From a virus: DNA of 15,235 nucleotides. The stretch spans positions 1 to 15,235 of IMG/VR virus record IMGVR_UViG_3300012352_000399. One strand, written 5' to 3'. Every line of letters begins with the position of its first letter. Within the stretch, counting starts at the first letter, position 1. Both the position numbers and the translations under genes were made by a program. Positions 1-15,185 of the stretch are shown one piece after another. Below the pieces are notes generated by a model. That model ran no database searches. It was not told the DNA's origin and saw nothing but the letters and a program-made list of their open reading frames with translations.

Positions 1-55
1 GTCATAACCAATATTCCATCTGGTCTATAGAATAGGTCTTTGGCATAGGGATATA
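1..55. repeat. 55-bp exact direct terminal repeat, copy 1 (identical to 15181..15235); circularisation overlap
   Basis: gtcataaccaatattccatctggtctatagaataggtctttggcatagggatata occurs at both window ends with no mismatch. 55 is a common assembler k-mer length, so this is probably an assembly overlap of a circular or concatemeric molecule. Confidence 0.95.
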
Positions 56-142
56 GTTTGTATTCTCCTGTGCCTGTGCTTATAAAGTCTCTTGGATCCA
101 CTAGTTCTGCCGTCCTTGCATTGTAGTATAAGTATACATGAA

Positions 143-172
143 CAAAGAAAAAAGCCCAATAGCTGGCGGGCT
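143..172 (-). terminator. Candidate intrinsic terminator closing the regulatory operon
   Basis: The minus strand reads AGCCCGCCAGCTATTGGGCT (AGCCC/GGGCT stem) followed by TTTTTCTTTG, 59 nt after the stop of the 107-aa ORF. The stem is short (5 bp plus G-U), so this is a weak to moderate call. Confidence 0.4.
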
Positions 173-230
173 ACTGAGCTTTAATCTTTACCTAGGGGTA
201 GGTTTTGTCATTTGGCAACGACAAATATAA

Positions 231-554
231 TTATAGCATTTTCTTCTGTACAAAGCTAGAGTTGAACTTCGTGTTTACTTTCTTTTCTTTCTTCACTGGA
301 GGATTAGGATCATAGAGATATACTGCTTCTCTCCAAGTCCAGAACTTATTCCTCTTCTTCTGAGCCATTTCGAATTCATCCATCCATAATAGAATCTCAG
401 CATCTAGTTGTTCTTGTGTTAGTTTAATCATATCTTCCATCTTGTGATTAGACCAAAAGGATTTAAGTAGTCCGTTTTCTTTTACTGTTTTACCTGTGGT
501 ATCTACCTTAGAATTATAGCTAACCCGCTTTTTTCCTGCGTCACTTCTTGCCAT
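231..554 (-). CDS. Hypothetical protein, 107 aa, last gene of the regulatory operon
   Basis: Co-oriented ORF with a 14-nt overlap on the upstream gene. It is Lys-rich at both ends with a W/F-rich centre (FWTWREAVYLYDPNPP). No motif recognised. Confidence 0.55.
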   Translation of the reverse strand: MARSDAGKKRVSYNSKVDTTGKTVKENGLLKSFWSNHKMEDMIKLTQEQLDAEILLWMDEFEMAQKKRNKFWTWREAVYLYDPNPPVKKEKKVNTKFNSSFVQKKML

Positions 555-933
555 TTAGCATTGCCTTTCGTCTGGCGTTATATGATCTGACTCTCCAACA
601 TGGTTTACAATATGTGTTCAATTTGTCAAAGGAGTTGGCTCTATGACCAAACTGGCTACGAGGCTTTTTAAGACCACAATCTTGGCAGACCTTAGAGTCT
701 ACATGGACTTTAGCATCAGAGGCCTTTAAAACCTCGTTGTAGGCCTTGTAGTAGGTACTGTAGCATTCTCTACACCATGCCTGTAGGCTATTGCCTACCT
801 TTTTGTTAAATTCTTGTGCTTCTTTAGTTGTGTCACACTTGCTGCAATATTTCACGATTCTTGTAATCTCCATATTCTTTAGTTTTAATCTTATGGCAAG
901 GTTTGCATAAGGTCTGTAGGTTATTTGGTTCAT
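541..933 (-). CDS. Cys-rich protein with two tandem zinc-ribbon modules (putative DNA-binding)
   Basis: Two copies of C-x2-C...F...C-x2-C are present: CSKCDTTKEAQEFNKKVGNSLQAWCRECY and CQDCGLKKPRSQFGHRANSFDKLNTYCKPCW. I recall this module type from the N-termini of many phage HNH/homing endonucleases. The start is uncertain: M1 at 933 overlaps the HNH gene by 101 nt, and M21 at 873 overlaps it by 41 nt. Confidence 0.6.
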   Translation of the reverse strand: MNQITYRPYANLAIRLKLKNMEITRIVKYCSKCDTTKEAQEFNKKVGNSLQAWCRECYSTYYKAYNEVLKASDAKVHVDSKVCQDCGLKKPRSQFGHRANSFDKLNTYCKPCWRVRSYNARRKAMLNGKK

Positions 934-1135
934 TATTACTTCTGTCCCCGTCGATATGATCTACATCTAATAGCTTCTTATCTAGTGGAACTGTAAGGCA
1001 TCTCTCACAATACCCCTTTTTAGCCTTCCGTGCCTGTCTACGGCAGTTTAAACAGCTAGACCTATACTGTCTAGTCCCTTTCTTGCTAATACCCTTTAAA
1101 GCGGCGTTTCTGCCGCATTTGCATTTAGGCCTCAT
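833..1135 (-). CDS. HNH endonuclease (zinc-finger HNH, packaging-associated type)
   Basis: A canonical motif is present: CERC...DVDHIDGDRSNNEPNNLQTLCKPCHKIKT (CxxC, DH, N, CxxCH). In the circular map it lies near terS/terL, as in cos phages that use an HNH partner for terminase. Confidence 0.85.
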   Translation of the reverse strand: MRPKCKCGRNAALKGISKKGTRQYRSSCLNCRRQARKAKKGYCERCLTVPLDKKLLDVDHIDGDRSNNEPNNLQTLCKPCHKIKTKEYGDYKNREILQQV

Positions 1136-1250
1136 TTGTCACCAACCATCCAACTGGGGCGGCGGCGGCGGTACACTCTTTACAGTGATCAAGGAAGCGA
1201 AGGTATTTCTTACAAGTGTTGCAAAAGTATATAGTTCCTTCTTTTACCAT
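1125..1250 (-). CDS. Unannotated 41-aa zinc-ribbon ORF (below the ORF-track size cut-off)
   Basis: Hand translation gives MVKEGTIYFCNTCKKYLRFLDHCKECTAAAAPVGWLVTNEA, with CxxC-x9-CxxC. Its ATG overlaps the stop of the upstream 118-aa gene (TCATGGTAA), and its stop overlaps the HNH start by 11 nt. It fills an otherwise unexplained 108-nt gap. Confidence 0.35.
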   Translation of the reverse strand: MVKEGTIYFCNTCKKYLRFLDHCKECTAAAAPVGWLVTNEA

Positions 1251-1600
1251 GACATTAACTCTTCTACTTGAATCAAAGAAAGATCAGTTGATTGTTTTGT
1301 ATTTATATTTGTATTTAATTTGTATTTAGGTGGTAATGTCATGCCGTAGGGTACGGCTTCAGGTACCGTAGGTTCGTAATGATTTGCCGCATCATAGTTT
1401 CTTGTCTGTTTTAGATAGCCAGCTTCTACTAATTCTTTCTTGGCAGTTCTGACTGTTCTTTCACATAATCCAGTTCCATCTGCTATTTGCTGATTAGTTG
1501 GTCTGGATGGATTGTATGAGGCAATTATCAATGCTACAATTCTAGCCTTGGTGCTTAGATTAGATTCTCTAATTAGGCGTAAGTACTGGAAGTAATCCAT
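1244..1600 (-). CDS. Winged helix-turn-helix protein (HTH_36 / DnaD-N-like; candidate replication initiator or transcription regulator)
   Basis: LSTKARIVALIIASYNPSRPTNQQIADGTGLCERTVRTAKKELVEAGYL is a typical wHTH segment. The gene has a strong SD (AAAGGAGAT) and is the first gene after a consensus promoter. Confidence 0.65.
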   Translation of the reverse strand: MDYFQYLRLIRESNLSTKARIVALIIASYNPSRPTNQQIADGTGLCERTVRTAKKELVEAGYLKQTRNYDAANHYEPTVPEAVPYGMTLPPKYKLNTNINTKQSTDLSLIQVEELMSW

Positions 1601-1625
1601 GTTATCTCCTTTCTGGTGAGATAAC
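1601..1625 (-). promoter_or_regulatory. Perfect 8-bp inverted repeat GTTATCTC-N9-GAGATAAC overlapping the RBS (operator and/or SD-sequestering hairpin)
   Basis: The minus strand reads GTTATCTCACCAGAAAGGAGATAAC followed directly by ATG. The right arm contains part of the AGGAG Shine-Dalgarno. The repeat starts about 4 nt after the -10 hexamer. Confidence 0.5.
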
Positions 1626-1628
1626 TAA

Positions 1629-1657
1629 ATTATAATGTATTATTTCTCTTATGTCAA
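1629..1657 (-). promoter_or_regulatory. Consensus sigma70-type promoter (TTGACA-17 nt-TATAAT)
   Basis: The minus strand reads TTGACA (1657..1652), then a 17-nt spacer TAAGAGAAATAATACAT, then TATAAT (1634..1629). It sits in the 57-nt gap between the 67-aa ORF stop and the wHTH gene. Both hexamers match consensus perfectly. Confidence 0.65.
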
Positions 1658-1861
1658 CTACTTGTCTTTGTTCATGAAATGCACATATATGTCATGCTGA
1701 CGCTGTTCAAGTCTATTTAACTGATCTTTCATAGATGAGCCTGAATTGGGGACTAATTCGGACAAATAGTGCTTTACTAACCATCTAACCATACCTATAA
1801 GTTGTACTTGTATTAATAGGATCCCGCCCACTATTGATAGAATCATCTGTATATTGCTCAT
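1658..1861 (-). CDS. Small membrane protein, holin-like candidate (67 aa)
   Basis: It has one N-terminal hydrophobic helix (ILSIVGGILLIQVQLIGMV) and a charged C-terminal tail. Its start shares an ATGA overlap with the upstream gene, and it is the last gene of the structural operon. No adjacent endolysin was recognised. Confidence 0.45.
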   Translation of the reverse strand: MSNIQMILSIVGGILLIQVQLIGMVRWLVKHYLSELVPNSGSSMKDQLNRLEQRQHDIYVHFMNKDK

Positions 1862-2574
1862 GGTCTAATTATCTTTCCATTCCTAGCTGCCGCTTGCTGA
1901 TAAGCTGAGTAACCTGGCATTCTATCTAATCCAGATGCAGATCCACCAAATGCTTTTGTCTTTCCTTTTCCAAATCTTTTAATAAGAAATTGCCTATTTT
2001 TTTCTCTGTTAAATCTATTGTCTGCAGTTGTTCCACCAGTTCTGTAACCGTTTCTAGCTGCCGCCGCTTGGTAATTAAAAAGTGCAGTTGCGGTATTCGA
2101 ATATACATTTCTTGGTGTTGCTAAAAATCTTCCAGAACCAAACATTAATCTATCTACAGCATTTTCCATAAACGATTGATGACAAGCATCACGAAGTTCA
2201 TCAAGCATTTCTGCAACTTCATCAATTATTAAGTTAATAGCATTGTAATATATATCGCCAAGCTCATCTTGCATAACATTGACGAACTCATCTGGATCAT
2301 ATTCTTCTTGTGTTAATTCACAATAATCTAGTGCCTTTGGAGAAAATTCATCTACTATAAGAGTTGTTTGTCCAGCATTACCAGCTTGATCTTCAGCCCA
2401 AGAAAGTATGTCATTGACTCCTTCTTCCCAGGATTGTTCATCAAATTGAGGAGCAAGGTCTAATGCATCTTCAGCACCAAAACCTCTTCTGCCTCTTACC
2501 CTTGAAAGATTTCTAAGACCATTAGCTCTGTATGAACTTCTCATGGCCCTTCTGAGAAGGAATCTAATTAACAC
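1858..2574 (-). CDS. Hypothetical virion-module protein, 238 aa, with segregated charge blocks
   Basis: It has an Arg-rich N-terminus, a strongly acidic centre (EDQAG...EEYDPDEF...DEVAEMLDELRD) and a basic Gly-rich C-terminus with a duplicated Q-AAARNG motif. The annotated start is GTG at 2574, overlapping the upstream stop by 1 nt. An alternative ATG lies at 2544. Confidence 0.55.
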   Translation of the reverse strand: MLIRFLLRRAMRSSYRANGLRNLSRVRGRRGFGAEDALDLAPQFDEQSWEEGVNDILSWAEDQAGNAGQTTLIVDEFSPKALDYCELTQEEYDPDEFVNVMQDELGDIYYNAINLIIDEVAEMLDELRDACHQSFMENAVDRLMFGSGRFLATPRNVYSNTATALFNYQAAAARNGYRTGGTTADNRFNREKNRQFLIKRFGKGKTKAFGGSASGLDRMPGYSAYQQAAARNGKIIRP

Positions 2575-2933
2575 TAAATATCACCAGATATTATTTTTGC
2601 TTTATATTTAAATCCTTCAACTATGCCAAGAGCATTTACAACTGGCTGTGTAGACTTGATTTCCCATGTGCCATCAACATAAATTTCATTTCCATTTCTA
2701 TCTAAAATGTTTGATAGATACCCAGCTTTTTGTAACTTGGAGTTAGTTAATACAACTATATCGCCAATAAATGTTGTGCTTAAAGCAAGTATTATCTGCT
2801 CAGGAACTTCAGTATAAACATTTTCTGTTACTGATCCGTCTGCAGATGTTACCTTTGTATACCCATAGTAGTCAGCAGTATAATTATATTTAGCTCTTCT
2901 AAGCGTATCAAACAACATTATATTTTCTTCCAA
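2574..2933 (-). CDS. Possible head-closure / head-tail joining protein (119 aa)
   Basis: Size, position directly after the connector gene, and a beta-rich C-terminus (GNEIYVDGTWEIKSTQPV) are compatible with SPP1 gp16-like head-closure proteins. The call rests on synteny and weak pattern only. Confidence 0.4.
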   Translation of the reverse strand: MEENIMLFDTLRRAKYNYTADYYGYTKVTSADGSVTENVYTEVPEQIILALSTTFIGDIVVLTNSKLQKAGYLSNILDRNGNEIYVDGTWEIKSTQPVVNALGIVEGFKYKAKIISGDI

Positions 2934-3307
2934 TCAACATTGTTTGGCCACTGGAATATCTTACCAGTTCTGTAGCTTCTTGATCTATTCCAAGATAAGC
3001 CGTTTGCAGCAATGATTGCTAGTGGTGACATAAATGGTGACATCATTCTAGTATCAAAGTTAACCATGGCATCTGTCTGCCCCTGGCTTGTTAAAGCTGC
3101 TTGCTTAAAAACAATATCCTCATTCTCAAGCATGTAGGCTGTTTGATAAGAAGTAATCTTATCTAGCAATATTAAATCGGATGGAGCTTCAATATCAATT
3201 TCATCTCTTCCAATATAGATTTCTACGATTGCTTGGGCTCTCATAATTAATGGGAGTGTTACATCGTATCCAGTATATTCTTTTACGCTATTAATTGTAC
3301 TAAACAT
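2918..3307 (-). CDS. Head-tail connector / adaptor (gp6-like, Phage_connect_1-type)
   Basis: The N-terminal pattern INSVKEYTGYDVTLPLIMRAQAIVEIYIGRDEI resembles the usual gp6-like signature (...aA...ie.y.gr). Size is about 130 aa, and the gene overlaps its neighbours. Confidence 0.55.
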   Translation of the reverse strand: MFSTINSVKEYTGYDVTLPLIMRAQAIVEIYIGRDEIDIEAPSDLILLDKITSYQTAYMLENEDIVFKQAALTSQGQTDAMVNFDTRMMSPFMSPLAIIAANGLSWNRSRSYRTGKIFQWPNNVDWKKI

Positions 3308-3642
3308 TATCTGAATCTCCTTCCTAGTTCACGCACTCTTATAGTGTGTGTTGTTGTAAAGTCTAACTTACCTGTCCCGCTCAATTTAAGCTGAAACACA
3401 TAGTCTCCAGGGTATTCAAAAAGGCTGCGGTCTGTTGGCCACTCAAACACAATTGTTCCAAGATCTTTGGCAGCCGTATTAAGAGTTGCACCTGTGAGGC
3501 TTATTTCTTCATTTCTTGATCCTAATAGAACTGCTTCAATTGTAGTATAGGCAGAGAGGTTAAAATCATTTCCATCCTGGTCCTTTACTTGAATCGAAAG
3601 AGGTCTTGCAGGAATTTGGTCTATCCAGTATTGACTAATCAT
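3307..3642 (-). CDS. Small beta-sandwich structural protein (Ig-like / BppU_N-like, tentative)
   Basis: LSIQVKDQDGNDFNLSAYTTIEAVLL...GTIVFEWP...GDYVFQLKL follows the alternating-strand pattern common in phage Ig-like fibre or baseplate accessory domains. Its start shares an ATGA overlap with the stop of the giant ORF. Confidence 0.45.
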   Translation of the reverse strand: MISQYWIDQIPARPLSIQVKDQDGNDFNLSAYTTIEAVLLGSRNEEISLTGATLNTAAKDLGTIVFEWPTDRSLFEYPGDYVFQLKLSGTGKLDFTTTHTIRVRELGRRFR

Positions 3643-6600
3643 TTGATTACGTCCTCTCTTATATATAGTATTGGGTCTACATGTATTATTTGTAGAACAA
3701 CTTGATCTTCTGAAGCAACATTGGATCTGCTATTTGCAAACATTCCTGCATTAGCTACCATTGTTGGTGCTGCAATTGTTGAGCCTGGCTTCACAATTGT
3801 AGCATTTGCTTCCATAGGTAGTACAAGTATCTTTGTTATTCCACTAGTAAAGTTTGTCTCAGGTAATGTTGCAGTTGCAACCATAGATTGAGCTGCAAAG
3901 TCATTAAACTTATCTACTATTTCTGTAGCATTTGGCATTTCTGCTGTTGCTGCAAAAGCCTGTGGTCTAACAACAGTTCCCTCAAGAAATTCTCTATTAG
4001 ATAACCAACGGAATCCTCTTGTAGGCATTGATGGCACTTCAAATGATACTGTTGGGTATTGCCATGAATATGTACTAGCAAAGAACACACTGCCTTGAGG
4101 TACAGATCTAAATGATAATCCGCCATTCTTATTTATTTTTCTTACCTTAACTGTTTCTTTTTGTACGCCAGCTTTATTAAAGTTAGTGTCTAATTCAAAA
4201 TCACCGCTTCTTTGTTGCAAAAGATGCATACCGTTTAATGACCAATATGGAGTTTCTGCTTCAACAAAATCTTGAGCAAGCAGTTCATCTCTTGTTTCTA
4301 AAGTAATGATTCCATTTTCATAAGCGTAATTTACCCAGTAAACACTTGTAAATTCAACTACACCACTTTCTAAACATTTGTTTATTTCTTCAGTAAAGTT
4401 TACATATATCTTTCCGCCAACTTGTGTTCCATCAAGAACATCACCTGGCTCAATAATAATAGACTGAGCATAATTTCTATAAGGATTTTCAATTAAATCC
4501 AATCCTCTACGAACAGTATTAGCAAAGGCTGTAATAATCTTTCCAGCTTTTACATTTTCAAATGGTGTAGCAAGATATCCAGATCTATTATTATTAGCTC
4601 GTGCACCAGTTGTTGAAATAAGAAACTCATCTCCAACAGCTAAAGCATCTTTGTGTTCATATTTTGCAAATTGTCTATCTGCCCCGCCCCAACGGTACTC
4701 ATCTGTAGATACCCAATATGCTGCTTGAGTTTTAACTAATGCTGGATAATCAGTGATATCTGGATGAGTATTAACAATTCTAGTTCTATTGTTCTTCCAT
4801 GTATCTTCCCATCCAAGAGGTTCATCGTATTCTGGTGGGACTGGAAGATCAGCAGCACCTTCAATGCCAAACATCTGTGTTGGTGAATAAGGATCGCTGT
4901 AATTACCTTGACCTACATTGTCATCCATGTCTGGAACTGTCTCAACACGATCTACAATCTTAAGATCAAGAGCAAGCTGAGCATTTGCAACCATTAAAGA
5001 TATACCAGTATCTACAGCTGCACGAAGACTCTTTACAAAGTCTTCAAATATCTTTGATTCTCTTAAATTAAAGTATGCGTCAACAACTTCAGCTCCAGTA
5101 AATGCATCCTTTTCGTTAGGATCGTTTGGATAGTTCTTGAACATAATCATGTCAAATTTAGATAAATCAATATCATTAATTAAATCAATATATCTTGGAG
5201 CATCTGTCAAAGGATCTCTAAATGTGCGACGCTTATTAACTAAAGCGTATGGAGCATTTGTTGTATTTTGAGACTGACTTACAAATTGTATAAAGTTAGT
5301 TTTTCCAATATTTTCAACTCCACCATAAGCTTCAACCTTAACAAGATCAGAAACCCACTTACCAGTAATATCTACTGGAAATACATCCCAGCCTTCAAAT
5401 TCTTGTGGAGGTGCTGTAAAGTAATCAAGAGTTGTAAGAGTATCTGGAGATTCATCACTTGTGTATGGACCAGTACCAAACGGTGTTCCAGTTTGCGGAG
5501 ATGATGTAGGCCAGAAGTAAAGCATTAATGCTCTTCCTCTATTTCCTGCAGCCTTTGATTCTTGTGCAATTTCTGCTGTTGCAGTAGCTGGCTCAGCATG
5601 AACTGGTTCATATTTAATAGATGCTGTGTAATGATCTGTTACTTCATCTGACTCAACAAAGAATGCTGCATCGTATGACCAAGCAGATGTTTCAAAGTCT
5701 GACTGCCATCTTGTATTTGAGTGGTTTGATCCAATAATGTATGGACGAATTCCAGCTCCTGATGCAAAATTGCTATCTGCAAAGAACTGAATGTCTAGCT
5801 GACCATCAATCCAGAACTGTACACGACCATCAAATCCGTACTGGATAATAATGTGGTGCCATGCTCCATCATCTATTCTCTTATTCCCATAAGCTGTAAC
5901 AAATGAGTATTTAGCAATACTTGTGTTATCTGGGTGAGCAAATATTCTAGCTTCGCCGATTCCCTGTGTAGCACGAGTTGCATACAACTTACCATCAATT
6001 AAACCAATTGAAGATGTTGCGCTTTGGTATCCAATAAAGCTTTGCTGGAATCCCTGAGCCATAACCTGATTGGCTTTTGTCGATTTAAATGTAAACTCAA
6101 GGCTGTATCCGTTATTTGAAACGTAATTGTTTTCAGGAATTGAGAATTGTATGTTTCTAAATCTAACTGCTTTTCTTTCGTAATCATCAAATGTTCCAAC
6201 CTCAAGAACAGGTGTTGGGGTAGCTGTTTGAAATGCATTTGTTGCAACTGCATATTGAGTATCAGTGCTTGTATCTGTTGGTGTATCTGTAACAATGCTA
6301 CGAGGCAAGTTATTAATAATCTTATTTGTATTTGCCCCGCCAATACTTTGTGTAACATCATCAAATAGCTTTAAGAATGCTGAGGCTGAAGATGTTCCAG
6401 CACTGCCAGCTAAGTTATCAGTCTTCCATCTTTCGCCATTAACTACAGAGTGCTGTAGGTATAGCTTCTGATACCAGATATCGTCTGTAATTAATTTGTA
6501 AGCAGGTGGGCTTACAAATATTGCTTGGACTGGAATTGATTGTGCAACAATTAAAGCGCCCAGGGTAGATGATATTGCTGGATCAACCATCTCTGCAGTA

Positions 6601-9215
6601 GCAATACCTGGGTTTGAATTAAAGTTGCCTGGTACAAATACTTCTGCTTCTGGCATCATTGCTGATGCATCCATATGTAGGACCTGGTTATTTTCTCCAA
6701 TATCCCATCCTGGATTTTCGCCTTGGGCATCTGCGGTCATAGGATCAGCAAGATTTTCTGTGTTCTTTGTTGCCTCATAGTTAGGATTTAAGAATAATGC
6801 ATCCACTAACATTGGCGGAATAAATGGAAATACGTTTGCAAATTCTGCAGATACAATCATTGCTGGTTCTGCAATTGTTGGACCAAATCCTGCTGCTATT
6901 GTTGGATCAACTGCTAAAGCAGATACTGTCCATTCTGTTTGATTCTGTATTGCTTGGTAAAGATCAAATACATCATTTGCACCCAATGCACCTGGGATTA
7001 ATGCAAATTCATCAATGTATGTATCTTTAGATGCTGTTCCAGTAGAATTGTATTTGGTTTCTGCAGAGACACCCCATGCTCCGAAGTCAGTTAAATTTAC
7101 TGCAGCAGTAGACATAGTTGCTACTTCTTTTCCATCAAGATAGAGTTTAAATGAACTTCCATCTTTTACACCAACTGCATGGTGCCATTTATTGTCACCA
7201 ACATTTATAGTTGTAGTAAGGGAATCAGTATCTGTTGGGCCAAATCCTTGATTTATTCTAGCTGTTAAATGTCCAGTGGAACCAGACATTGCGATTGTAA
7301 TACCAGCTCCAATAAATCCATACATACCAGCAGAAAATAATATTTGTTCAAATGATGTGTAGCCATTTGCTTTAAAGACTACAGATGCTGTTTGACGATT
7401 ATCTGCTGAGTATAATCCATCTACTCCATCCCAATCACCTTGTAAATATGTATCTGCATTTGTAAATCTATAAGCTTTGCCGTTTAAAGAAGCATTTCCA
7501 AATGTTATGGCTTCTCCATTTATGCCAGCAGAAAATGCACGGATAGAACCAAAGTTAGTAGGAGTTCCAGTTGTATCATCTAGTCGATACTCAAGGCTTG
7601 GTGCGTATGAATTAGTTAGATCATTAAATGCACTTTCAAATCTAACGCGAGGTTGAACCATTCCAGCAGCAGCTTGAATTGGAACAGCCGCAGCTGCCAT
7701 AATTGCAGCTCTTTCTGTAGATGTAATTGTGTTGTATCCAGTTACAAACATATGAGATACATAGGCATACTTAGTATTAGCACCAGTTTGACCAGTTAAT
7801 CCAAATACAGCAGTACCTACAGCTGGACTATTATTGTTACCAGGTGTTGCAGTACTGATTTCTGTTCCATTATCAATACTAATCTTAATTGTATTTCCTG
7901 AAGCAGATCTCCTTGCATGAACAAAGTGCCAATTGTTGTCGCACCAATTTGTCTGATTATTTGATACGCTACTAGCTGTATAAGTTGTACCATTATGGTT
8001 CATAAGGAACCTAATGTATCCATCAGGTGTAGCACCTATTTGGTAGTTATTGTCAGTAAATAATTCTTGATAGGTTATAAAGTTAGTATCTTTTGCACCA
8101 AATCCAGATTCTGCTTTAAACCAGAATCCAATAGAAAATTCATTGTCTGTAATTTCTGGTGAGTAAGGTTCATTTGTTCCAAATGCTAGCTGTACAATAT
8201 TGTTTGGTGCACCTCTATTGCCTTTAAGCTTTAAGCCACCAGATCCTTGAATACCAAGTTGTGGCCCAGTTGTTGTTTCATTATAAAATGCCCATGCTGT
8301 TTCAGCATCTCCGCCGCTTCCGTAGTTATGAATCTTCTTTACTTCATCAAACTTATACCATTGTTCTAGTGATCTGGTTGCTAAATAGTCATCAAGCATA
8401 ACTGGAGTATCAAAGTTGGATACCTGAATGTCTCCAATATCTGCAGTAGCTGTTGCAGGTGTTTCAATAATTACTATTTCAGTTGATATTGCTGGATCTA
8501 CTGCAAGGGCTGATGCTGTAGATACTTCAGCTGTTGTAGTTCTATCTGCAAACTCCAACATATGATTTGCTACAAATGTATCTACCTGAGCAGTAGTTCT
8601 TGCGCTTCCATTGTAAAATGCATAAAAGTCAATTGTTGCTTCTGAATAGGCAGATGGAGATGCACCGCTTGAATTAGTATATGAACCAAGGTTAACAAAT
8701 CCACTATAATTTAAATTACCAAGTGTGCTTTTAGTTCCGATAAGAACGCCATCTACATATAATCTAAAGCCAGCTGTTCCATTATGATAAGAAACTACTA
8801 TATGATGAAATTTACCATCACAAAGATTGACTGATCCAGTTATAGAGTTTCCACCATAACTTACTGTATTAAATGTTGCTCTGATATAACCATTTGATGT
8901 AATTTGTATTGAAGTTGTTTGTAAAGATGATAACAAATATACATCAGAAGCTGGAGCTGAACTTCTTCTAAATACTATTTCATGTTCAAAATTATTAATA
9001 CCATATGATGCACCCCATTGATGTAATACACGGCCATCTGATCCAAAGTCATAAGATGCATTACCAGTAAGAGAGTTTGGATTTTGTGTAACAGTGCCAA
9101 ATTGACTAGAAGAAACAGAAAGTCCAGAATAATTTGCTTTTTCAGTTGAAGATGAGTCTAAGTTTGTTGCAAGTGTAAAGTTTCCGTCTGCTTGGGCTAC
9201 TGTATATAATGACAT
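3639..9215 (-). CDS. Giant 1858-aa virion protein with four LamG/concanavalin-A-like lectin repeats and an unassigned C-terminal region (putative tail fibre/spike or adhesin)
   Basis: This is an uninterrupted 5577-nt ORF. The LamG (Laminin_G_3-type) core signature W/F-H-H...LY-DG recurs four times: DGKFHHIVVSYHNGTAGFRLYVDG (aa 133-156), NNWHFVHARRSASGNTIKISIDNG (427-450), DNKWHHAVGVKDGSSFKLYLDGK (674-696) and DDGAWHHIIIQYGFDGRVQFWIDGQ (1115-1139). No SD precedes the ATG. Confidence 0.9.
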   Translation of the reverse strand: MSLYTVAQADGNFTLATNLDSSSTEKANYSGLSVSSSQFGTVTQNPNSLTGNASYDFGSDGRVLHQWGASYGINNFEHEIVFRRSSAPASDVYLLSSLQTTSIQITSNGYIRATFNTVSYGGNSITGSVNLCDGKFHHIVVSYHNGTAGFRLYVDGVLIGTKSTLGNLNYSGFVNLGSYTNSSGASPSAYSEATIDFYAFYNGSARTTAQVDTFVANHMLEFADRTTTAEVSTASALAVDPAISTEIVIIETPATATADIGDIQVSNFDTPVMLDDYLATRSLEQWYKFDEVKKIHNYGSGGDAETAWAFYNETTTGPQLGIQGSGGLKLKGNRGAPNNIVQLAFGTNEPYSPEITDNEFSIGFWFKAESGFGAKDTNFITYQELFTDNNYQIGATPDGYIRFLMNHNGTTYTASSVSNNQTNWCDNNWHFVHARRSASGNTIKISIDNGTEISTATPGNNNSPAVGTAVFGLTGQTGANTKYAYVSHMFVTGYNTITSTERAAIMAAAAVPIQAAAGMVQPRVRFESAFNDLTNSYAPSLEYRLDDTTGTPTNFGSIRAFSAGINGEAITFGNASLNGKAYRFTNADTYLQGDWDGVDGLYSADNRQTASVVFKANGYTSFEQILFSAGMYGFIGAGITIAMSGSTGHLTARINQGFGPTDTDSLTTTINVGDNKWHHAVGVKDGSSFKLYLDGKEVATMSTAAVNLTDFGAWGVSAETKYNSTGTASKDTYIDEFALIPGALGANDVFDLYQAIQNQTEWTVSALAVDPTIAAGFGPTIAEPAMIVSAEFANVFPFIPPMLVDALFLNPNYEATKNTENLADPMTADAQGENPGWDIGENNQVLHMDASAMMPEAEVFVPGNFNSNPGIATAEMVDPAISSTLGALIVAQSIPVQAIFVSPPAYKLITDDIWYQKLYLQHSVVNGERWKTDNLAGSAGTSSASAFLKLFDDVTQSIGGANTNKIINNLPRSIVTDTPTDTSTDTQYAVATNAFQTATPTPVLEVGTFDDYERKAVRFRNIQFSIPENNYVSNNGYSLEFTFKSTKANQVMAQGFQQSFIGYQSATSSIGLIDGKLYATRATQGIGEARIFAHPDNTSIAKYSFVTAYGNKRIDDGAWHHIIIQYGFDGRVQFWIDGQLDIQFFADSNFASGAGIRPYIIGSNHSNTRWQSDFETSAWSYDAAFFVESDEVTDHYTASIKYEPVHAEPATATAEIAQESKAAGNRGRALMLYFWPTSSPQTGTPFGTGPYTSDESPDTLTTLDYFTAPPQEFEGWDVFPVDITGKWVSDLVKVEAYGGVENIGKTNFIQFVSQSQNTTNAPYALVNKRRTFRDPLTDAPRYIDLINDIDLSKFDMIMFKNYPNDPNEKDAFTGAEVVDAYFNLRESKIFEDFVKSLRAAVDTGISLMVANAQLALDLKIVDRVETVPDMDDNVGQGNYSDPYSPTQMFGIEGAADLPVPPEYDEPLGWEDTWKNNRTRIVNTHPDITDYPALVKTQAAYWVSTDEYRWGGADRQFAKYEHKDALAVGDEFLISTTGARANNNRSGYLATPFENVKAGKIITAFANTVRRGLDLIENPYRNYAQSIIIEPGDVLDGTQVGGKIYVNFTEEINKCLESGVVEFTSVYWVNYAYENGIITLETRDELLAQDFVEAETPYWSLNGMHLLQQRSGDFELDTNFNKAGVQKETVKVRKINKNGGLSFRSVPQGSVFFASTYSWQYPTVSFEVPSMPTRGFRWLSNREFLEGTVVRPQAFAATAEMPNATEIVDKFNDFAAQSMVATATLPETNFTSGITKILVLPMEANATIVKPGSTIAAPTMVANAGMFANSRSNVASEDQVVLQIIHVDPILYIREDVIK

Positions 9216-9246
9216 AAAAATAGGCTGCTGGCGTTATGCCGCAGCC
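9216..9246 (-). terminator. Intrinsic-terminator-like hairpin plus T-run immediately upstream of the giant ORF
   Basis: The minus strand reads GGCTGCGGC-ATAAC-GCC(A)GCAGCC followed by TATTTTT and then the giant-ORF ATG. The stem is 9 bp and GC-rich with one bulge and a 5-nt loop. The stop codon of the 66-aa ORF lies in the loop. Confidence 0.5.
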
Positions 9247-9434
9247 CGTACTCCAATTCTGAATGATTCTGGGTTGATTGTTGAAATGCTGTGTCCGCCT
9301 ATAGAAATGATTGGAGCAAAGGAGAGGTTGGAGACTACTGGAGTAAGATCACCAGAAAGAGACTCTACAGTAATTTGGACTACGACTAGTTCGCAACTTG
9401 CGATTAGTGCGCCAACCTCTACCTTTGCATCCAT
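9234..9434 (-). CDS. Small hypothetical protein, 66 aa (capsid-module ORF)
   Basis: It is co-oriented, fills the gap between the 143-aa gene and the giant ORF, and has AAGG upstream overlapping the previous stop. It shares the higher G+C of the capsid block. A plus-strand ORF also overlaps here, so coding status is unsure. Confidence 0.4.
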   Translation of the reverse strand: MDAKVEVGALIASCELVVVQITVESLSGDLTPVVSNLSFAPIISIGGHSISTINPESFRIGVRAAA

Positions 9435-9445
9435 GCGTAATTACC

Positions 9446-9877
9446 TTACGCTACAGTGATTCGAACAATACCAGTCGAATCCCATGTGATTGTGAAGTTA
9501 CCATTGGTTGAAGACTGGTCTGAACCGAAGTCTACGTATCCAATGAGAGCTGATGTGCTTGATGTGCCTGTTGAATCATATACAACTGCATAACGAGCTG
9601 TGATAGTTGATGAAGACCATGTAACATCTGCAGCGTCAAGAACGATTACGTTTGTGCCTGAATCGTATGTTGCTGTCTTAGATGCTAGTGTGATTCCACC
9701 AGCTGTGTAACCTGTACCTGTTACTTCGTATGTAGAAACATCGTTGAAGTAATCATGTGTATCTTGGTTAGGTGTGTAGGATGAAGTAAGTAGAGCAACC
9801 TTGATTGTGTCAGAGTCGAAATCTACTTCCTTGTTGAGTGCCTTAAGTAGGAAGTTACCGTATAGTTTAGAAGCCAT
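9446..9877 (-). CDS. Conserved-looking structural protein, 143 aa (capsid decoration, head fibre or other virion protein; function unassigned)
   Basis: It lies directly after the major capsid gene and has an AGGGGGA SD. The composition is beta-rich and Thr/Ser/Gly-rich (YEVTGTGYTAGGITLASKTATYDSGTNVIVLDAADVTW), typical of virion surface proteins. Confidence 0.6.
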   Translation of the reverse strand: MASKLYGNFLLKALNKEVDFDSDTIKVALLTSSYTPNQDTHDYFNDVSTYEVTGTGYTAGGITLASKTATYDSGTNVIVLDAADVTWSSSTITARYAVVYDSTGTSSTSALIGYVDFGSDQSSTNGNFTITWDSTGIVRITVA

Positions 9878-9891
9878 TAGTCATTTCCCCC

Positions 9892-10797
9892 TTACGCTGA
9901 AGTCTTGCGAACGATTGCGAACGCTTCAGGAGCCGCTACTGCGAATCCACGACGAACACGAGTCTTTAGCAAGACGCCATCCTTTGAAAAGTCTGCATCA
10001 CGAGAGATTGCAGATTCTACTGTGCTACGAACACCGTTGATCATCATTTGGCGGTTACCAACGATAAGCAATGGGTCTCCTGTTGGAGCTGATGTAGCTG
10101 CAGCTGAAGTTGCTGCACCGTATGAGATTACTAGTGGGTATCCGAATAATGATCCTGGACGAGCACCTAGTGGATCTGGAAGAACAAGGTTTCCACCTGT
10201 TGTTTCCATCTGACGAATGAGGTTAAGCATCTTTGGGTGAACGATAACAACTGTGTTAGCTGCATCGAAGTACTTTGACTCTTCTGCCTTGCCTAGAGCG
10301 TTAGAAATATCTGCGAACTCTAGATCTCCTGCAGTTGAAATGATGTTTGCACCTGAGTTGTACTGTGAAACTGAATAGTAAACAGAGTTGAACGGCTGTC
10401 CGTCATCTCCGTCGCCTACAGCTGTTACACCAAGGCATGCATTGTCATACTTACGAGCCCACTGTGAAGCCCATTCTCTCTTGTATGTGTTGAGTGTGTC
10501 AACGAGTGAATCGTTAACATCTTCCTCTGAAATGTTGAAAATCTGTGCGTACTTCTTAGCTGTAAGAACTACCTCATCCAGAGTTGTATCTGAATTAGGA
10601 ATATCTACGCCTTCTGCTACGATTGTTGGTGCATCTGATACGAAGCGTGGAACGCCCTTTGTACGAGATGACATATTCTCACGACGAGCAAATGCTTCTA
10701 CTACAGAGTTAGCTGTTGTTGCTTGAATAGCAACTGAGCCTTTTTCCTCTGGAATATAGCCATTACCTTCTGTGAGATCTGTGCGACCTGCGGCCAT
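9892..10797 (-). CDS. Major capsid protein, HK97 fold (Phage_capsid family)
   Basis: It is 301 aa with a strong SD (AAAGGAGATTAACATG) and follows the scaffold gene. The segment TLDEVVLTAKKYAQIFNISEEDVNDSLVD matches the characteristic HK97-family pattern (..L.a.K.a....is.El..Ds). Confidence 0.85.
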   Translation of the reverse strand: MAAGRTDLTEGNGYIPEEKGSVAIQATTANSVVEAFARRENMSSRTKGVPRFVSDAPTIVAEGVDIPNSDTTLDEVVLTAKKYAQIFNISEEDVNDSLVDTLNTYKREWASQWARKYDNACLGVTAVGDGDDGQPFNSVYYSVSQYNSGANIISTAGDLEFADISNALGKAEESKYFDAANTVVIVHPKMLNLIRQMETTGGNLVLPDPLGARPGSLFGYPLVISYGAATSAAATSAPTGDPLLIVGNRQMMINGVRSTVESAISRDADFSKDGVLLKTRVRRGFAVAAPEAFAIVRKTSA

Positions 10798-10820
10798 GTT
10801 AATCTCCTTTTAATTAGTTA

Positions 10821-10902
10821 ATTTGGGTTTTTGAACATATAATCGTCCGAATATATTAATCGCAACCCAAATGTCCATTTGGAGCTGCATAAGACAATTA
10901 TA
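10821..10902 (-). promoter_or_regulatory. Structured leader upstream of the capsid gene, with a perfect TATAAT hexamer and mutually exclusive hairpins
   Basis: On the minus strand, TATAAT (10902..10897) lies 10 nt after the scaffold stop, with only a poor -35. Downstream, CCAAAT-GGAC-ATTTGG forms a 6-bp hairpin, and ATTTGGGTT pairs with AACCCAAAT 34 nt further on (9 bp). The two structures share the ATTTGG segment. Confidence 0.3.
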
Positions 10903-10911
10903 CCGTACTTA

Positions 10912-11361
10912 TTATTTCTTTAAAACCATTTTTGCTTGCAAATCTGATGCAGATTGAGGAACTTCTAATGAAGCAGCTACTCCTGAGTCAGCTTTACCAG
11001 CTACAATGAATTTTGGATCGAATAATTCTGGGAAGTCTGTCTTTAATGTGCTGATTTGCTCATCAAGACCTGCAACCTCAAAATCTTCAGTTAAAGATAA
11101 TGCATCCATCTTAATATACTTATTTAGTTTATCTCCATGGGCAATACCTAATGATGCAAGATGTTTATTAACATGCTCCATCACTAACTTTGACTGGAAT
11201 TGGGAAATCTTGGAGACTGATTCATTTACCTGTGCCTCCAAGGCTTCCTTTTCCAATCTAAACTTCTTTGCCTCCGCCTTCGCTTTATCTAAAGCATCTA
11301 AGACGGCTTTAGGATCACGAATCTCGTCAGATGTACCTTCTACTTGATTCTGTTCTTCCAT
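10912..11361 (-). CDS. Scaffolding protein (149 aa, coiled-coil)
   Basis: It sits between the portal and capsid genes. It is acidic and Lys/Glu/Ala-rich with heptad-like character (DALDKAKAEAKKFRLEKEALEAQVNESVSKISQFQSKL). Confidence 0.7.
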   Translation of the reverse strand: MEEQNQVEGTSDEIRDPKAVLDALDKAKAEAKKFRLEKEALEAQVNESVSKISQFQSKLVMEHVNKHLASLGIAHGDKLNKYIKMDALSLTEDFEVAGLDEQISTLKTDFPELFDPKFIVAGKADSGVAASLEVPQSASDLQAKMVLKK

Positions 11362-11362
11362 T

Positions 11363-12769
11363 TTATTCTCCTGTATTGTTTTGCTCAGCGGCTACCTGTT
11401 GTAGTGCCAAGTTGTTTGTATTTAATCCAGTTCCACGCAAAGCAACCTCTGTTGAGTTTGCATTGTCTGTTGTATTTGCCATTGCTTCATCAGCAATAAT
11501 CTTTGCAATTTCTGGGTCATATCCAAGCTCAAGAAGGATCTGCTCCAAAGGAACTCCTACTGACTTCTTGCGAACTGCGATATCCCATTGGTCTAGAGAA
11601 TCGATTGATTCTGGAGACTTCCAATCAATATCTACATCAGCAACAATGCCTTCGATCTTAAGCATAAACTTAAATAGATCTCTCCATGTTGAACCAAGAG
11701 CAAGCTGGCGGTTAAGAACCTTCTTGAATAATGGTGCTTCAGCTACACGCAAAGCTTGTCCTGATGGAAGGTATGTTGTGCTTGAGAAGTAATGAACTGG
11801 AGTTGATGTAATTGCAGCCATGTCTGAAACAAACTCATTAACTGGGTTTGTAAATGTTGATGGGTCTGCTGCTGGGAATTGTCCAACAGATTGAACTCCT
11901 TGCAAGTACCAGAGTTGTCCTGGACCATTTTGCAATGCTCCAATGTTTTCTCTAGCTGTATCATCTTCTGAGAAGTCATCTATTTCAGATGAGCTTCCAC
12001 CATTTGATAATGCATAACGCTGTGGAGCACCCTGATAGTCTACTGTCATCATGTGAGTTGATATCAGCTTGTTGATAGCATCCTGTGGGCCAAATGCATC
12101 AGCATGCTCTGGTCTTCCGTATGGCTTATTTGTTCTGAAATGGAAAACTGGAATTTCATTCCAAGGATTAACCACAGTTTCAACCAAAGTAAGATTTGGC
12201 AGCCCATTTAGAGAATCAAGTTCACCTAGACCCTCATACTTTTCAATTCTATCTGTGTAATACATATTGATCTTGATAACTTTGCGGTCAGCGGCATCTG
12301 TAATCTGCCACATCTTTGTTGCAAATGACTTAACACGAGGGTTCTCCTGATCATATACAAGAGTAGTAGTCATTGGTGAGTTGTAATCTATTGCTAGATT
12401 CCCGTCCATATCTGGCCATACAATTGCATAGCAATCGCCATAAACAAGTGCATTTCTATGAATTTCGTTAATATCAAGCTTCAAATCTGTCTGTTCCCAG
12501 ATTTTATTAATATATGCGTCTCCTGCTGGGCTAGTTGTCTCAACTTGCTCAATTTCTAGACGATTGTGTACTGCATCTACTACAGTCTTGCTAAAATTGA
12601 ATCTAAACGGAGTAACTCCCGAAAATCTTGACTGTTCGTTTCTAAATAATCTGTACCAGCGTTGATGAGTAAATACTTCATCATTTGCGCCTTCGTAATA
12701 CGCTTCAGCGACCATATATCGATCTCTTTTGTTAATTATCTGGTCTAAAGCTAATTTAATATCTGACAT
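11363..12769 (-). CDS. Portal protein (SPP1 gp6-like)
   Basis: It is 468 aa, lies immediately after terL, and has a strong SD (AAGGAGATAAAATG). The N-terminal AEAYYEGANDEVF motif and overall layout are typical of gp6-like portals. Confidence 0.85.
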   Translation of the reverse strand: MSDIKLALDQIINKRDRYMVAEAYYEGANDEVFTHQRWYRLFRNEQSRFSGVTPFRFNFSKTVVDAVHNRLEIEQVETTSPAGDAYINKIWEQTDLKLDINEIHRNALVYGDCYAIVWPDMDGNLAIDYNSPMTTTLVYDQENPRVKSFATKMWQITDAADRKVIKINMYYTDRIEKYEGLGELDSLNGLPNLTLVETVVNPWNEIPVFHFRTNKPYGRPEHADAFGPQDAINKLISTHMMTVDYQGAPQRYALSNGGSSSEIDDFSEDDTARENIGALQNGPGQLWYLQGVQSVGQFPAADPSTFTNPVNEFVSDMAAITSTPVHYFSSTTYLPSGQALRVAEAPLFKKVLNRQLALGSTWRDLFKFMLKIEGIVADVDIDWKSPESIDSLDQWDIAVRKKSVGVPLEQILLELGYDPEIAKIIADEAMANTTDNANSTEVALRGTGLNTNNLALQQVAAEQNNTGE

Positions 12770-12770
12770 T

Positions 12771-14261
12771 TTATCTCCTTAAGTAATTTAATTGCTTTAC
12801 AAATACTTTTGGAGTACTGTTATCCAAGAAGTATAGAATTCCTGACACTACTGCGTCCAGTACGTCATCGTGGCTTACCTTTGGGAATGACCACATTTGT
12901 TCTTCTAGAGCTGGGAAGTGTTGTGTATGTCTAACTTTGCCTTGCTGATAGAAGTTCAAAGCTTTTCCTGCACGGATTTGCTTTGATACGGATTGTCGAA
13001 TTGATTTGTAGCGAACTGGTATATGTTTAAACACATCTTGCCACAAATCGCCTCCCTGGTTTGTTTCTACGTATATAATACCAGGATTGTATGTTTCAAC
13101 CAAGGCTGAAACTCTGTCTGCTAGTTCAGATGGAGATACTTTAAGTTGAAATGCATCTCTTACATAAATGTTTCCATCTTCACCTCTGCTCAATACAGCA
13201 ATACCTGTATAGTCAGAAACTTTATTCTTTGTAACTGCAGGGTCAATAGATATGATCGTATTGCCGTAGTCCTCTTGATTTTCAATAATTACATCTTCAT
13301 ATGTCCAGAAATTACCATCAAGGTTCACAGGTTTGTTCATATAGTTCTTTGCGAAGTCTCTGAGGTGTCTTTGGCTGTTCAACCAGTCTAGAGGCCACTT
13401 CTCAGGCCATACAGAGCGTTCTGAGCCATCTTCAGCTGTCATAATGGCTGGATAGTAGTGTACGGCCACATTCTGGTCTGTAATCCACTCCAGTGCCTTA
13501 TCACGCTGGCCCTCAGAATGCTTTCTAAACTCATCCATCATAGAGTTTGGCATGGTTGTAGTACCCACAATAATCATGCGGGCATATATATTCATTGGGG
13601 CAATGTCGTCAAATACTGTTCTACGCTGCTGTCCTGCTTGGTATTCGGAGTAGTTCTTTTCACCTTTTTCGATATCATCAAGAATAATGAGGTCAGGGCG
13701 TTGGCCAAATACCTTTTTACCCAGTGAGTTAGTATCAATACCATTAGCGTCGAAGATAAAATCATTTGATTGAATAATACGCCAAGCGTTTGCTGCAAGG
13801 GAACGCCCAGTTGAACCGACAATCTTAGGTGTGCATAGTTCTGGGTAATCTGCTTTGAGATATTCATTAGTTTCCAATTCATTTTTAAAAGTAAGTAAGT
13901 GCGTCTCAGCTTGAGAAGCAGCATCTGAAAAAGCAGCCACAAATTTAATGTGACCATGGGCGGCGGCCCACATAGGTAGAATCAAAAAGATCCAGGTTGA
14001 CTTGCCACATTCTCTAGGAGCAATAAATGCATCTCTATTTTGCTTAGGAGAAGTTGGCTTATTGATCCAAGTCTTTCCATATTCAGCCAAATCCCAGTGA
14101 AATTCCGAAAGAGTGAGTTCATCTTCCATATTCTTTAAGTGATGTGGCAAATAAGTAAGCGCAAAGAGCATTGGATCATATTTAGTAAGTTCCCGCCTAC
14201 CTTCTGAATATGCCATCAATTCTGGATTAATGTCTTCCATGTATTTTGTTATATCATACAT
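12771..14261 (-). CDS. terL: Terminase large subunit
   Basis: It is 496 aa with a Walker A-like APRECGKST (aa 81-89) and Walker B LIILDDIE. The C-terminal nuclease-like region contains conserved acidic residues (ISIDPA..., HDDVLDAV). Confidence 0.92.
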   Translation of the reverse strand: MYDITKYMEDINPELMAYSEGRRELTKYDPMLFALTYLPHHLKNMEDELTLSEFHWDLAEYGKTWINKPTSPKQNRDAFIAPRECGKSTWIFLILPMWAAAHGHIKFVAAFSDAASQAETHLLTFKNELETNEYLKADYPELCTPKIVGSTGRSLAANAWRIIQSNDFIFDANGIDTNSLGKKVFGQRPDLIILDDIEKGEKNYSEYQAGQQRRTVFDDIAPMNIYARMIIVGTTTMPNSMMDEFRKHSEGQRDKALEWITDQNVAVHYYPAIMTAEDGSERSVWPEKWPLDWLNSQRHLRDFAKNYMNKPVNLDGNFWTYEDVIIENQEDYGNTIISIDPAVTKNKVSDYTGIAVLSRGEDGNIYVRDAFQLKVSPSELADRVSALVETYNPGIIYVETNQGGDLWQDVFKHIPVRYKSIRQSVSKQIRAGKALNFYQQGKVRHTQHFPALEEQMWSFPKVSHDDVLDAVVSGILYFLDNSTPKVFVKQLNYLRR

Positions 14262-14358
14262 TTTTACTGTCCAAATTTATTCTCAGTGGCAAAATTTATA
14301 TTTTTAAATTTAAGTACATTTCGGGTGGTCTGCATGCAATTGTCGACATATCTACTTA

Positions 14359-14829: not shown

Positions 14830-14840
14830 GTTAAACTCCT

Positions 14841-14856
14841 ATTTTTATATATATAT
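14841..14856. repeat. AT-only tract with (TA)5 microsatellite
   Basis: atttttatatatatat sits just upstream of the terS SD and about 50-80 bp from the paired DnaA boxes. Confidence 0.7.
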
Positions 14857-14898
14857 CGCCATTTACGGAGGCGTTCCTGAATCGTAATACTAATATAT

Positions 14899-15075: not shown

Positions 15076-15185
15076 TCCGCCTCATCTCCTATTGTTCGGT
15101 CAAGGAATCGCCTCATTTGAGGACTTGCTTTGAAGGAGAAGCTGAACTCTTGTGTATCTGTCTCATTGAACATCTCTATTGTCAT
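15072..15185 (-). CDS. Possible 37-aa acidic ORF spanning the circularisation junction
   Basis: Hand translation gives MTIEMFNETDTQEFSFSFKASPQMRRFLDRTIGDEAE. Its TGA overlaps the ATG of the 58-aa ORF (GAATGAC). The SD is weak, so it could be non-coding. Confidence 0.2.
   Translation of the reverse strand: MTIEMFNETDTQEFSFSFKASPQMRRFLDRTIGDEAE

Follow-up and report, generated by a model that had tools for sequence, protein, structure and literature searches.

A winged-helix initiator-like gene with embedded direct repeats in the 15-kb genome of a freshwater MiniFlayer-type phage that lacks recognizable replication enzymes

We analyzed a 15,235-nt stretch of viral DNA, positions 1 to 15,235 of IMG/VR record IMGVR_UViG_3300012352_000399 (the window is this whole stretch), which has a GC content of 38% and, like its relatives, comes from a freshwater metagenome. 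The ends of the window are identical over 55 nt, giving a unit of 15,180 bp, and the window belongs to a family of 128 IMG/VR contigs, many of them 14 to 15.5 kb long. Among 50,697 phage records, its best matches are Satellite phage MiniFlayer and Streptomyces phage Mulchroom, while no GenBank phage matches it at the DNA level. The minus strand carries every credible gene, the coding density is 97%, and the window has no tRNA. These genes include each of the small open reading frames (ORFs) named by a first-pass annotation of this DNA, which encode a 107-amino-acid (aa) protein, a double zinc ribbon, an HNH nuclease, a 41-aa ribbon, a winged helix-turn-helix (wHTH) protein, and a 67-aa protein. 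We found that the region from 231 to 1657 is one early operon of five genes, running from promoter to terminator, and that its first gene, which encodes a wHTH protein of the replication-initiator type, contains three direct repeats. The features of this region and its borders are as follows.

1629 to 1657, minus strand: early promoter, TTGACA-17-TATAAT
1602 to 1624, minus strand: inverted repeat TTATCTC-N9-GAGATAA, covering the ribosome-binding site of the wHTH gene
1244 to 1600, minus strand: 118-aa wHTH protein, candidate origin-binding initiator, N-domain only
1296 to 1327, minus strand: three direct repeats of AAATACAAA inside the wHTH gene, candidate iterons and origin
1125 to 1250, minus strand: 41-aa zinc ribbon (CxxC...CxxC), weak Pfam zinc-ribbon matches
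833 to 1135, minus strand: predicted zinc-ribbon HNH endonuclease, 100 aa (Pfam HNH, 1.2e-6; phrog_144, 3.6e-14)
541 to 873 (more likely than 541 to 933), minus strand: double zinc ribbon, 2 x CxxC-N20-CxxC (phrog_5558, Lar-like, 1.4e-13)
231 to 554, minus strand: 107-aa basic protein, last gene of the early operon
151 to 182, minus strand: intrinsic terminator
1658 to 1861, minus strand: 67-aa single-pass membrane protein, last gene of the late block

The promoter is the only 12-of-12 match to the sigma-70 consensus in the window, and the TTGACA -35 element upstream of the wHTH gene is kept in almost all relatives examined. The terminator, with a 13-pair stem and a T-run, is the best terminator-like site in the window, and relatives carry a hairpin and a T-run at the equivalent place. 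The arms of the inverted repeat co-vary across relatives, and both its ...agaaag loop and the position of the Shine-Dalgarno sequence are fixed; from this pattern, the element looks like a translational control site or an operator.

The wHTH protein resembles phage replication initiators in their N-terminal, origin-binding part. It has Pfam matches to HTH_36 (8e-10) and RepL (0.003), and its PHROG matches are to replication-initiation families, namely, phrog_270 (4e-11), 678, 428, 345, and 391, together with the DnaD-like family 186. Three of these (678, 345, and 391) are annotated as "replication initiation O-like," a class with an N-terminal winged-helix origin-binding domain such as the one found here. 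All orthologues, which range from 118 to 217 aa, contain HTH_36, and one of them scores above the RP-C cut-off. With a profile of the wHTH domain, we found 9,374 proteins among 1.84 billion representatives, and 57 longer, more distant hits had Pfam matches to DnaD_N (33 proteins), RP-C (21), RepL (15), and Phage_rep_O (7), along with generic wHTH domains. RepA_N (PF06970) was not among the Pfam matches of the wHTH protein or of 10 orthologues, and the related DnaD_N appeared just in the distant relatives. The protein ends 14 residues past the repeats and lacks a C-terminal domain for recruitment of a helicase loader, nor does the genome contain a P-like or DnaC-like gene. A homologue search, a weak one in that it covered only proteins of 381 to 2000 aa, found no fused or longer forms of the wHTH protein.

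The AAATACAAA repeats are 9 bp long, are spaced 11 and then 12 bp apart, and lie in an AT-rich stretch. Five copies of this sequence occur in the window, compared to 0.48 expected, and three of the five are clustered in the wHTH gene. Copy 1 encodes K-Y-K, and copies 2 and 3 encode N-T-N and N-T-K; since the 11-bp step places copy 1 in another reading frame, the repeat is kept at the DNA level and not at the protein level. In 14 of 15 orthologues, there are two to five repeats with an 11- to 12-bp period at the same position in the wHTH gene, with a unit that varies by wHTH clade (AAATACAAA, TAAATACACA, AATAATGAA, TAACAATGA, AGATACTTTAAA, and AAAAGATAA). In a separate observation, the initiator module is exchanged among lineages (L006, L010, and L015 versus L035, L066, and L067), such that relatives with 93 to 95% identical portals have wHTH proteins just 36 to 40% identical to that of the window, while relatives with 68 to 78% identical portals have wHTH proteins that are 65 to 79% identical and share the same iteron unit.

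In phage lambda, the O protein has a winged-helix origin-binding N-domain, and the direct repeats of ori-lambda lie inside gene O. The gene in the window is alike in that it encodes a winged-helix N-domain and contains its own direct repeats in an AT-rich stretch. It differs in that its product is just 118 aa long, lacks a C-terminal domain, and has no P-like helicase loader to partner it, and in that lambda has four 19-bp iterons, compared to 9-bp repeats at 11- to 12-bp spacing here. In addition, Phage_rep_O does not match the wHTH protein of the window itself, only the 7 of the 57 distant relatives counted above.

In most relatives, the repeat array is followed, still inside the wHTH gene, by a hairpin with an invariant loop (TCTAACGA) and co-varying stems of 6 to 9 bp. 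Compensatory changes are found in 8 of 9 stem pairs, and its score was reached by 0 of 500 shuffles. In Mulchroom (L084), the same hairpin, with a 9-bp stem, stands in a 1-kb noncoding gap, while MiniFlayer (L083) lacks it. It may serve as an origin, a priming site, or a packaging signal. Positions of the hairpin are as follows.

L006:12255-12282, L066:2263-2290, L073:10981-11008, and others: TCTAACGA-loop hairpin in relatives of the window
L084:9837-9864: TCTAACGA-loop hairpin in Mulchroom

An alternative explanation of the data on this gene is that the wHTH protein is only a transcription regulator, either an autorepressor or a late-gene switch, that the 12-nt repeats are a low-complexity linker, and that replication starts elsewhere or is coupled to recombination or packaging on helper machinery. 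This would fit with the results of a PDB profile search, which returned just generic wHTH repressors (GntR/MarR-like), as well as with the palindrome that overlaps the ribosome-binding site and with the Asn/Thr/Glu-rich peptides that the repeats encode. However, we consider it improbable, since spacings of 11/12 or 12/11 bp in the window and in three relatives (L067, L010, and L042) put the copies in differing frames with differing peptides, the copies are identical at synonymous sites, and the unit sequence tracks the wHTH clade. It is also opposed by the PHROG and Pfam neighbors of the protein, which are initiators (phrog_270/678/428, RP-C, RepL, DnaD_N, and Phage_rep_O), and by the presence of the associated hairpin in noncoding DNA of Mulchroom.

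A second candidate replication element lies near the small terminase subunit gene (terS), at the other end of the window.

14908 to 14937, minus strand: pair of perfect DnaA boxes (TTATCCACA) at a 21-bp spacing, next to an AT tract and upstream of terS

There is no other perfect DnaA box in the window. Arrays of one to four boxes are found at the equivalent place only in the subclade to which the window belongs (8 loci), and more distant relatives have none. The boxes may help replication in this subclade.

We scanned every ORF with Pfam, PHROGs, and NCBIfam, and also built two structure models and searched PDB. In agreement with the first-pass annotation, no polymerase, primase, helicase, recombinase, integrase, or muralytic domain was recognized in the 15,180-bp genome, and no ORF matched a repressor-module family. 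The matches in the early block were to HTH_36 (118-aa protein), HNH (100-aa protein), and zinc ribbons (41-aa and 130/110-aa proteins). The scans returned nothing for the 107-, 238-, 58-, and 69-aa proteins, and for the 67-aa protein they returned only phrog_9869, a family of unknown function. For modeling with AlphaFold2 (AF2), we used the following two sequences.

3642 to 5573, minus strand: C-terminus of the 1858-aa LamG protein (the giant protein), residues 1215 to 1858 (644 aa); AF2 pLDDT of 71 from a 28-sequence alignment
1858 to 2574, minus strand: 238-aa variable helical protein; AF2 pLDDT of 72 from 32 sequences

The model of the giant-protein C-terminus has a ThuA-like/GATase1-like (class-I-glutamine-amidotransferase-like) fold, with a VIA Z of 9.4 to the ThuA-like structure 1t0b and of 9.2 to IFT52-N and STM3548, and a Foldseek E value of just 0.02. 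Among 28 homologues, no Cys or His in this domain is invariant, so the usual catalytic triad is missing. The full giant protein has no sequence match in PDB, with its middle LamG region covered by sequence only. On the basis of the ThuA-like fold without a triad and the lack of a PDB sequence match, we rejected the giant protein as a source of a lysin or other enzyme. The 238-aa protein was modeled as an all-helical bundle with no match in PDB or BFVD beyond its own family, and its homologues are confined to this phage family, where the protein ranges from 103 to 283 aa and where unrelated ORFs take its place in many members. As a lysin candidate, this ORF was also rejected, given the helical bundle, the family-only homologues, and the lack of a usable ESM Atlas match. 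Homologues of the 107-aa protein are likewise restricted to contigs of this family, the longest of which are about 15 to 16 kb, and this ORF has no family match and no usable ESM Atlas match. Neither the 238-aa nor the 107-aa protein appears enzyme-like, and AF2 models and structure searches of the giant-protein C-terminus and the 238-aa ORF recognized no lysin or replication enzyme, the finding that the first-pass annotation had said would refute its view. We also noted two homologues of the 238-aa protein (P0005 and P0029) whose listed contigs, at 34,387 and 24,220 bp, exceed the length of one genome unit. Such contigs may represent concatemers, or the copies may lie embedded within other DNA; scans of viral and metagenome contigs with P0029 did not recover the 24-kb and 34-kb contigs.

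It is conceivable that the enzymes are present yet unrecognizable, with the 238-, 107-, 69-, or 58-aa protein or part of the giant protein acting as a new lysin, primase, or helicase loader. Several conserved ORFs indeed have no family or fold match, and the middle of the giant protein was examined by sequence alone. We find this quite improbable, however, because the all-helical 238-aa protein varies in length and is so often replaced, the other orphans are shorter than 110 aa and highly basic, the C-terminal domain of the giant protein lacks invariant Cys and His, and MiniFlayer, with a like layout, is experimentally helper dependent (PMC10690885).

The genome is complete, as is seen from its 55-nt identical ends, its IMG/VR class (direct terminal repeat [DTR] genome, 100% complete), and the many relatives of 14 to 15.5 kb. 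About 20 near-complete relatives have an identical gene set and order. In 20 of 20 loci, the interval from the membrane-protein gene to terS measures 2.1 to 2.6 kb, and tblastn searches of each locus found within it the double zinc ribbon and the 69-aa gene in all 20, the HNH and 107-aa genes in 19 each, and the 41-aa gene in 8, with a 59- to 65-aa ORF in place of the last in the others. The first position of the interval is occupied by an HTH_36 protein, which tblastn detected in 13 loci and Pfam in 3 of the remaining ones (L032, L051, and L082). Thus, the absence of enzymes is a family trait and not an assembly gap, and further enzymes would not fit into the interval. That the assembly is incomplete or chimeric, with the missing functions on unassembled DNA, is extremely improbable. 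The 55-nt terminal overlap equals an assembler k-mer size, and a 1-kb DTR like that of MiniFlayer would escape such a short overlap; against this, closure at 14 to 15.5 kb with a shared circular order is seen in many independent contigs of different samples, the extra length of a 17.7-kb contig reflects more than one unit, and the coding density is high.

The first-pass annotation had also left lysis or exit unexplained, and it is still so. The 67-aa protein has the sole clear transmembrane (TM) segment in the genome (residues ~7 to 25; KD19 of 2.27), matches phrog_9869 at 2e-9, and is kept in 33 loci. Its only database homologue is in a 39-kb uncultured phage, where it lies between a gene for a 732-aa protein and unknown ORFs and has no recognizable lysin adjacent to it. 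A holin-endolysin cassette would require a lysin next to the TM protein, and no ORF in the genome has a lysin family or fold, so the 67-aa protein is at most a holin-like candidate without a partner. An exit that the genome leaves unexplained, with the sole TM protein lacking a lysin partner, fits with reliance on a helper.

We compared the window with MiniFlayer (OQ357865), whose helper is Streptomyces phage MindFlayer. On the rotated circle, the minus-strand genes of the window outside the early block are arranged as follows.

101 to 1 joined to 15180 to 15072, minus strand: 69-aa conserved gene at the assembly junction, first in the order
Next, minus strand: 58-aa basic ORF and TerS (156 aa)
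Next, minus strand: large terminase subunit (TerL), SPP1-type portal, scaffold, and HK97 major capsid protein (MCP)
9446 to 9877, minus strand: 143-aa phrog_644 protein, followed by a 66-aa ORF and the 1858-aa giant protein
Next, minus strand: 111-, 129-, and 119-aa ORFs, at the positions of MiniFlayer gp9 ("tail fiber"), gp10 ("head-to-tail adaptor"), and gp11
Last, minus strand: 238-aa ORF and 67-aa membrane protein, followed by the early block (231 to 1657)

MiniFlayer is syntenic with the window from terS to the connector genes. By tblastn over full lengths, identities are 33% for TerS (gp1), 46% for TerL, 41% for the portal, and 44% for the MCP, and the scaffolds are homologous. The order of the gp6-to-gp10 block, including the giant fiber gene, is shared, with identities of 71% for gp6, 49% for gp9, and 46% for gp10, and gp8 matches the giant protein at 25% identity over 888 aa, with 26% identity for the 644-residue C-terminus. 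Both genomes lack a polymerase, a primase, an integrase, and a lysogeny module, and both encode zinc-ribbon proteins of common PHROGs. In MiniFlayer, the gene for gp13, at the position of the wHTH gene, contains tandem arrays with 3.8 copies each of 22-bp and 12-bp units (L083:12335-12467), which makes gp13, annotated as hypothetical, a sequence-based candidate for an initiator and origin. The two genomes differ in several respects. gp13 is 368 aa long without a Pfam or PHROG match, in contrast to the 118-aa wHTH protein with its clear HTH_36 match. MiniFlayer has a GC content of 47%, a soil Streptomyces host, and a length of 17.4 kb, compared to 38%, a freshwater metagenome, and 15.2 kb for the window. 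The window, unlike MiniFlayer, has a canonical HNH gene and DnaA boxes, the distal genes gp17 to gp25 of MiniFlayer have no counterpart in the window, and MiniFlayer has a DTR of ~1 kb, whereas just the 55-nt assembly overlap is visible in the window. Mulchroom has only the head module in common with the window, and it carries an integrase.

Both MiniFlayer and Mulchroom are reported to lack primase and replicase genes (PMC10690885, deCarvalho et al. 2023). MiniFlayer, which has no integrase, was inseparable from MindFlayer on purification, attaches to the neck of this helper, and was never seen on the host by itself (PMC10690885). A second point of comparison is the Vibrio cholerae satellite PLE, whose RepA initiator activates replication from the PLE origin only in ICP1-infected cells and needs the helper replisome (PMC7145576). 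PLE resembles the window in having an initiator and an iteron origin while encoding no helicase, primase, or polymerase (PMC7145576), and the N-domain of its RepA is of the DnaD-N/RepA_N structural type, with DnaD_N being the domain matched by 33 of the 57 distant relatives of the wHTH protein. It differs in that its origin is noncoding, the element is integrative, and it has no capsid genes; moreover, the wHTH protein lacks a RepA_N Pfam match, and the helper dependence of the window is a matter of inference.

We consider it probable that the window represents the entire genome of a MiniFlayer-type satellite phage of low GC content from freshwater, with its own origin recognition and a borrowed replisome. 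From the gene content, the homologies, and the repeats with their conservation, we infer a scheme in which protein binding, origin function, and helper dependence would come together as follows. On entry, host RNA polymerase would transcribe the early operon from the consensus sigma-70 promoter. The wHTH protein would most likely bind the three AAATACAAA repeats in its own gene and so mark the origin, in a manner like that of lambda O and its ori. Helicase, primase, and polymerase would be supplied by a co-infecting helper, which is the likeliest source (compare PLE RepA and ICP1), or by the host. The element would make its own head, connector, and giant fiber and would have kept origin recognition as its sole replication function. 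Exit would occur via the lysis genes of the helper, with the 67-aa membrane protein as at most a holin-like aid. By sequence, the operon would then be a minimal replicon built on an initiator-like wHTH gene with embedded iterons. The first-pass annotation had seen no replication enzymes and only a DNA-binding/nuclease operon; the former part holds, and the latter understates an operon with an initiator-type wHTH protein and iterons. Its statement that replication must be almost wholly host driven does not follow, since the replisome of a helper could be used, as it is by PLE (PMC7145576). Dependence on a helper phage, which it had offered as one option, is made likeliest by the homology and synteny with MiniFlayer, short of proof.

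Several observations weigh against the satellite reading. No helper phage was identified. The wHTH protein, at 118 aa, is the shortest in its family and has no C-terminal recruiting domain, HTH_36-type domains occur in ordinary regulators too, and the PDB profile search described above found repressors only. The TCTAACGA hairpin is absent from the window, where the segment folds no better than shuffles, and the N-terminus of MiniFlayer gp13 matches the wHTH profile weakly (hhalign probability of 33%). Finally, a plasmid-like, initiator-only replicon with DnaA boxes and a host promoter fits host-driven autonomy equally well.

Initiator-only replicons are normal for plasmids, and an initiator with iterons suffices for many of them. 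This background bears on the possibility that the window is an autonomous miniature virulent phage, in which the wHTH protein would work with host DnaA, DnaB, primase, and Pol III, the 67-aa protein would bring about lysis alone or with an unrecognized partner, and no helper would be involved. The consensus host-type promoter, the pair of perfect DnaA boxes next to an AT tract, and the element's own terminase, portal, capsid, connector, and giant fiber are all in keeping with such a phage, as is the abundance of the family in IMG/VR. We think it possible but unlikely, because its only studied close relative is the helper-bound MiniFlayer (PMC10690885), profile scans and models recognized no gene for a tail tube, nozzle, ejection, or muralytic function, the DnaA boxes are missing in most of the family, and the wHTH protein has no helicase-recruiting domain. 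Extended to the whole family, this line of thought would make its members the smallest self-sufficient HK97-type tailed phages, at ~15 kb, and not satellites, with an initiator of ~120 aa and exit through a single membrane protein without a muralytic enzyme. Replication would then resemble that of iteron plasmids, with the addition of host DnaA in some clades. We regard this broader claim as unlikely.

The HNH protein and the two zinc-ribbon proteins of the early operon would be near-core DNA-handling accessories and may act in packaging or end formation, or in counter-defense. The HNH protein has an intact CxxC...DH...N...CxxCH motif and scores 28.9 bits in Pfam, compared to a cut-off of 21.4. 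Its gene lies ~1 kb upstream of terS on the circle. Zinc-ribbon HNH proteins of this class are often encoded near terminase genes (PMC3592412), and the window protein is similar to the cos/terminase-side type (HK97 gp74; PMC3592412) in being a small HNH protein with an N-terminal zinc ribbon in a genome with an HK97-type head. It differs from this type in that three small genes and the terminator intervene before terS and in that the ends of MiniFlayer are a DTR and not cos. The double zinc ribbon also matches the N-terminal parts of "endonuclease VII"/HNH PHROGs but is without catalytic HNH residues. It shares its motif and PHROGs with MiniFlayer gp14 (L083:13020-13298) and gp16 (L083:13435-13704) and Mulchroom gp13 (L084:10035-10511), so that the counterpart of these proteins in the window is the double zinc ribbon and not the canonical HNH protein. 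All three are annotated as "HNH" or "endonuclease VII," yet have no catalytic HNH motif in the aligned part.

Elsewhere in the genome, the 69-aa gene spans the assembly junction and was split when the circle was linearized. It is 43 to 97% identical across 31 loci, with the motif LYPYAKD..Y.PDG, and has no PHROG match. Upstream of it, directly past the early-operon terminator, there is a conserved -10-like sequence, GTATA(A/C)TTAG, with a conserved leader. The 143-aa phrog_644 protein, at 71% identity to MiniFlayer gp6, is far better kept than the capsid, portal, and terminase (41 to 46%); it is 55 to 61% identical to proteins from Gordonia phages and Caulobacter phiCbK-like phages, and proteins of this type are annotated as "minor tail protein" in some phages.

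As to integrated copies, which the first-pass annotation had proposed to look for, one TerL scan of genome contigs found no integrated close relative. What the scan did recover, from Streptomyces chromosomes, were distant integrated elements that resemble Mulchroom and encode a tyrosine integrase, Lsr2, and an HATPase. One of these (L093, a contig of Streptomyces sp. NPDC102462, 3558 to 16466) adjoins glnA and carries these same three genes; it lacks a giant gene but encodes homologues of the 143-, 111-, and 129-aa proteins, and its TerL match falls into two segments separated by ~430 nt. In addition, an 11-kb family member (L085, RHCX01000049.1; TerL identity of 78%), in which the membrane-protein gene lies between terS and terL, is binned in a metagenome-assembled genome of a Nitrososphaeria archaeon. 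In light of the family's affinities to actinophages and of the DnaA boxes, this binning is probably an error.

The absence of replication enzymes has itself already been published for this family (PMC10690885). Satellite viruses of phages that have their own capsid and no replication genes have so far been represented by two soil isolates only, and our results indicate that the MiniFlayer type has a large freshwater, low-GC branch with a fixed gene set of ~15 kb. They also point to a possible start of replication in such elements, at iterons within the initiator gene itself. MiniFlayer gp13, a protein published as hypothetical in a genome described as "without replication genes," shows the same layout, which can be tested in that cultured system.

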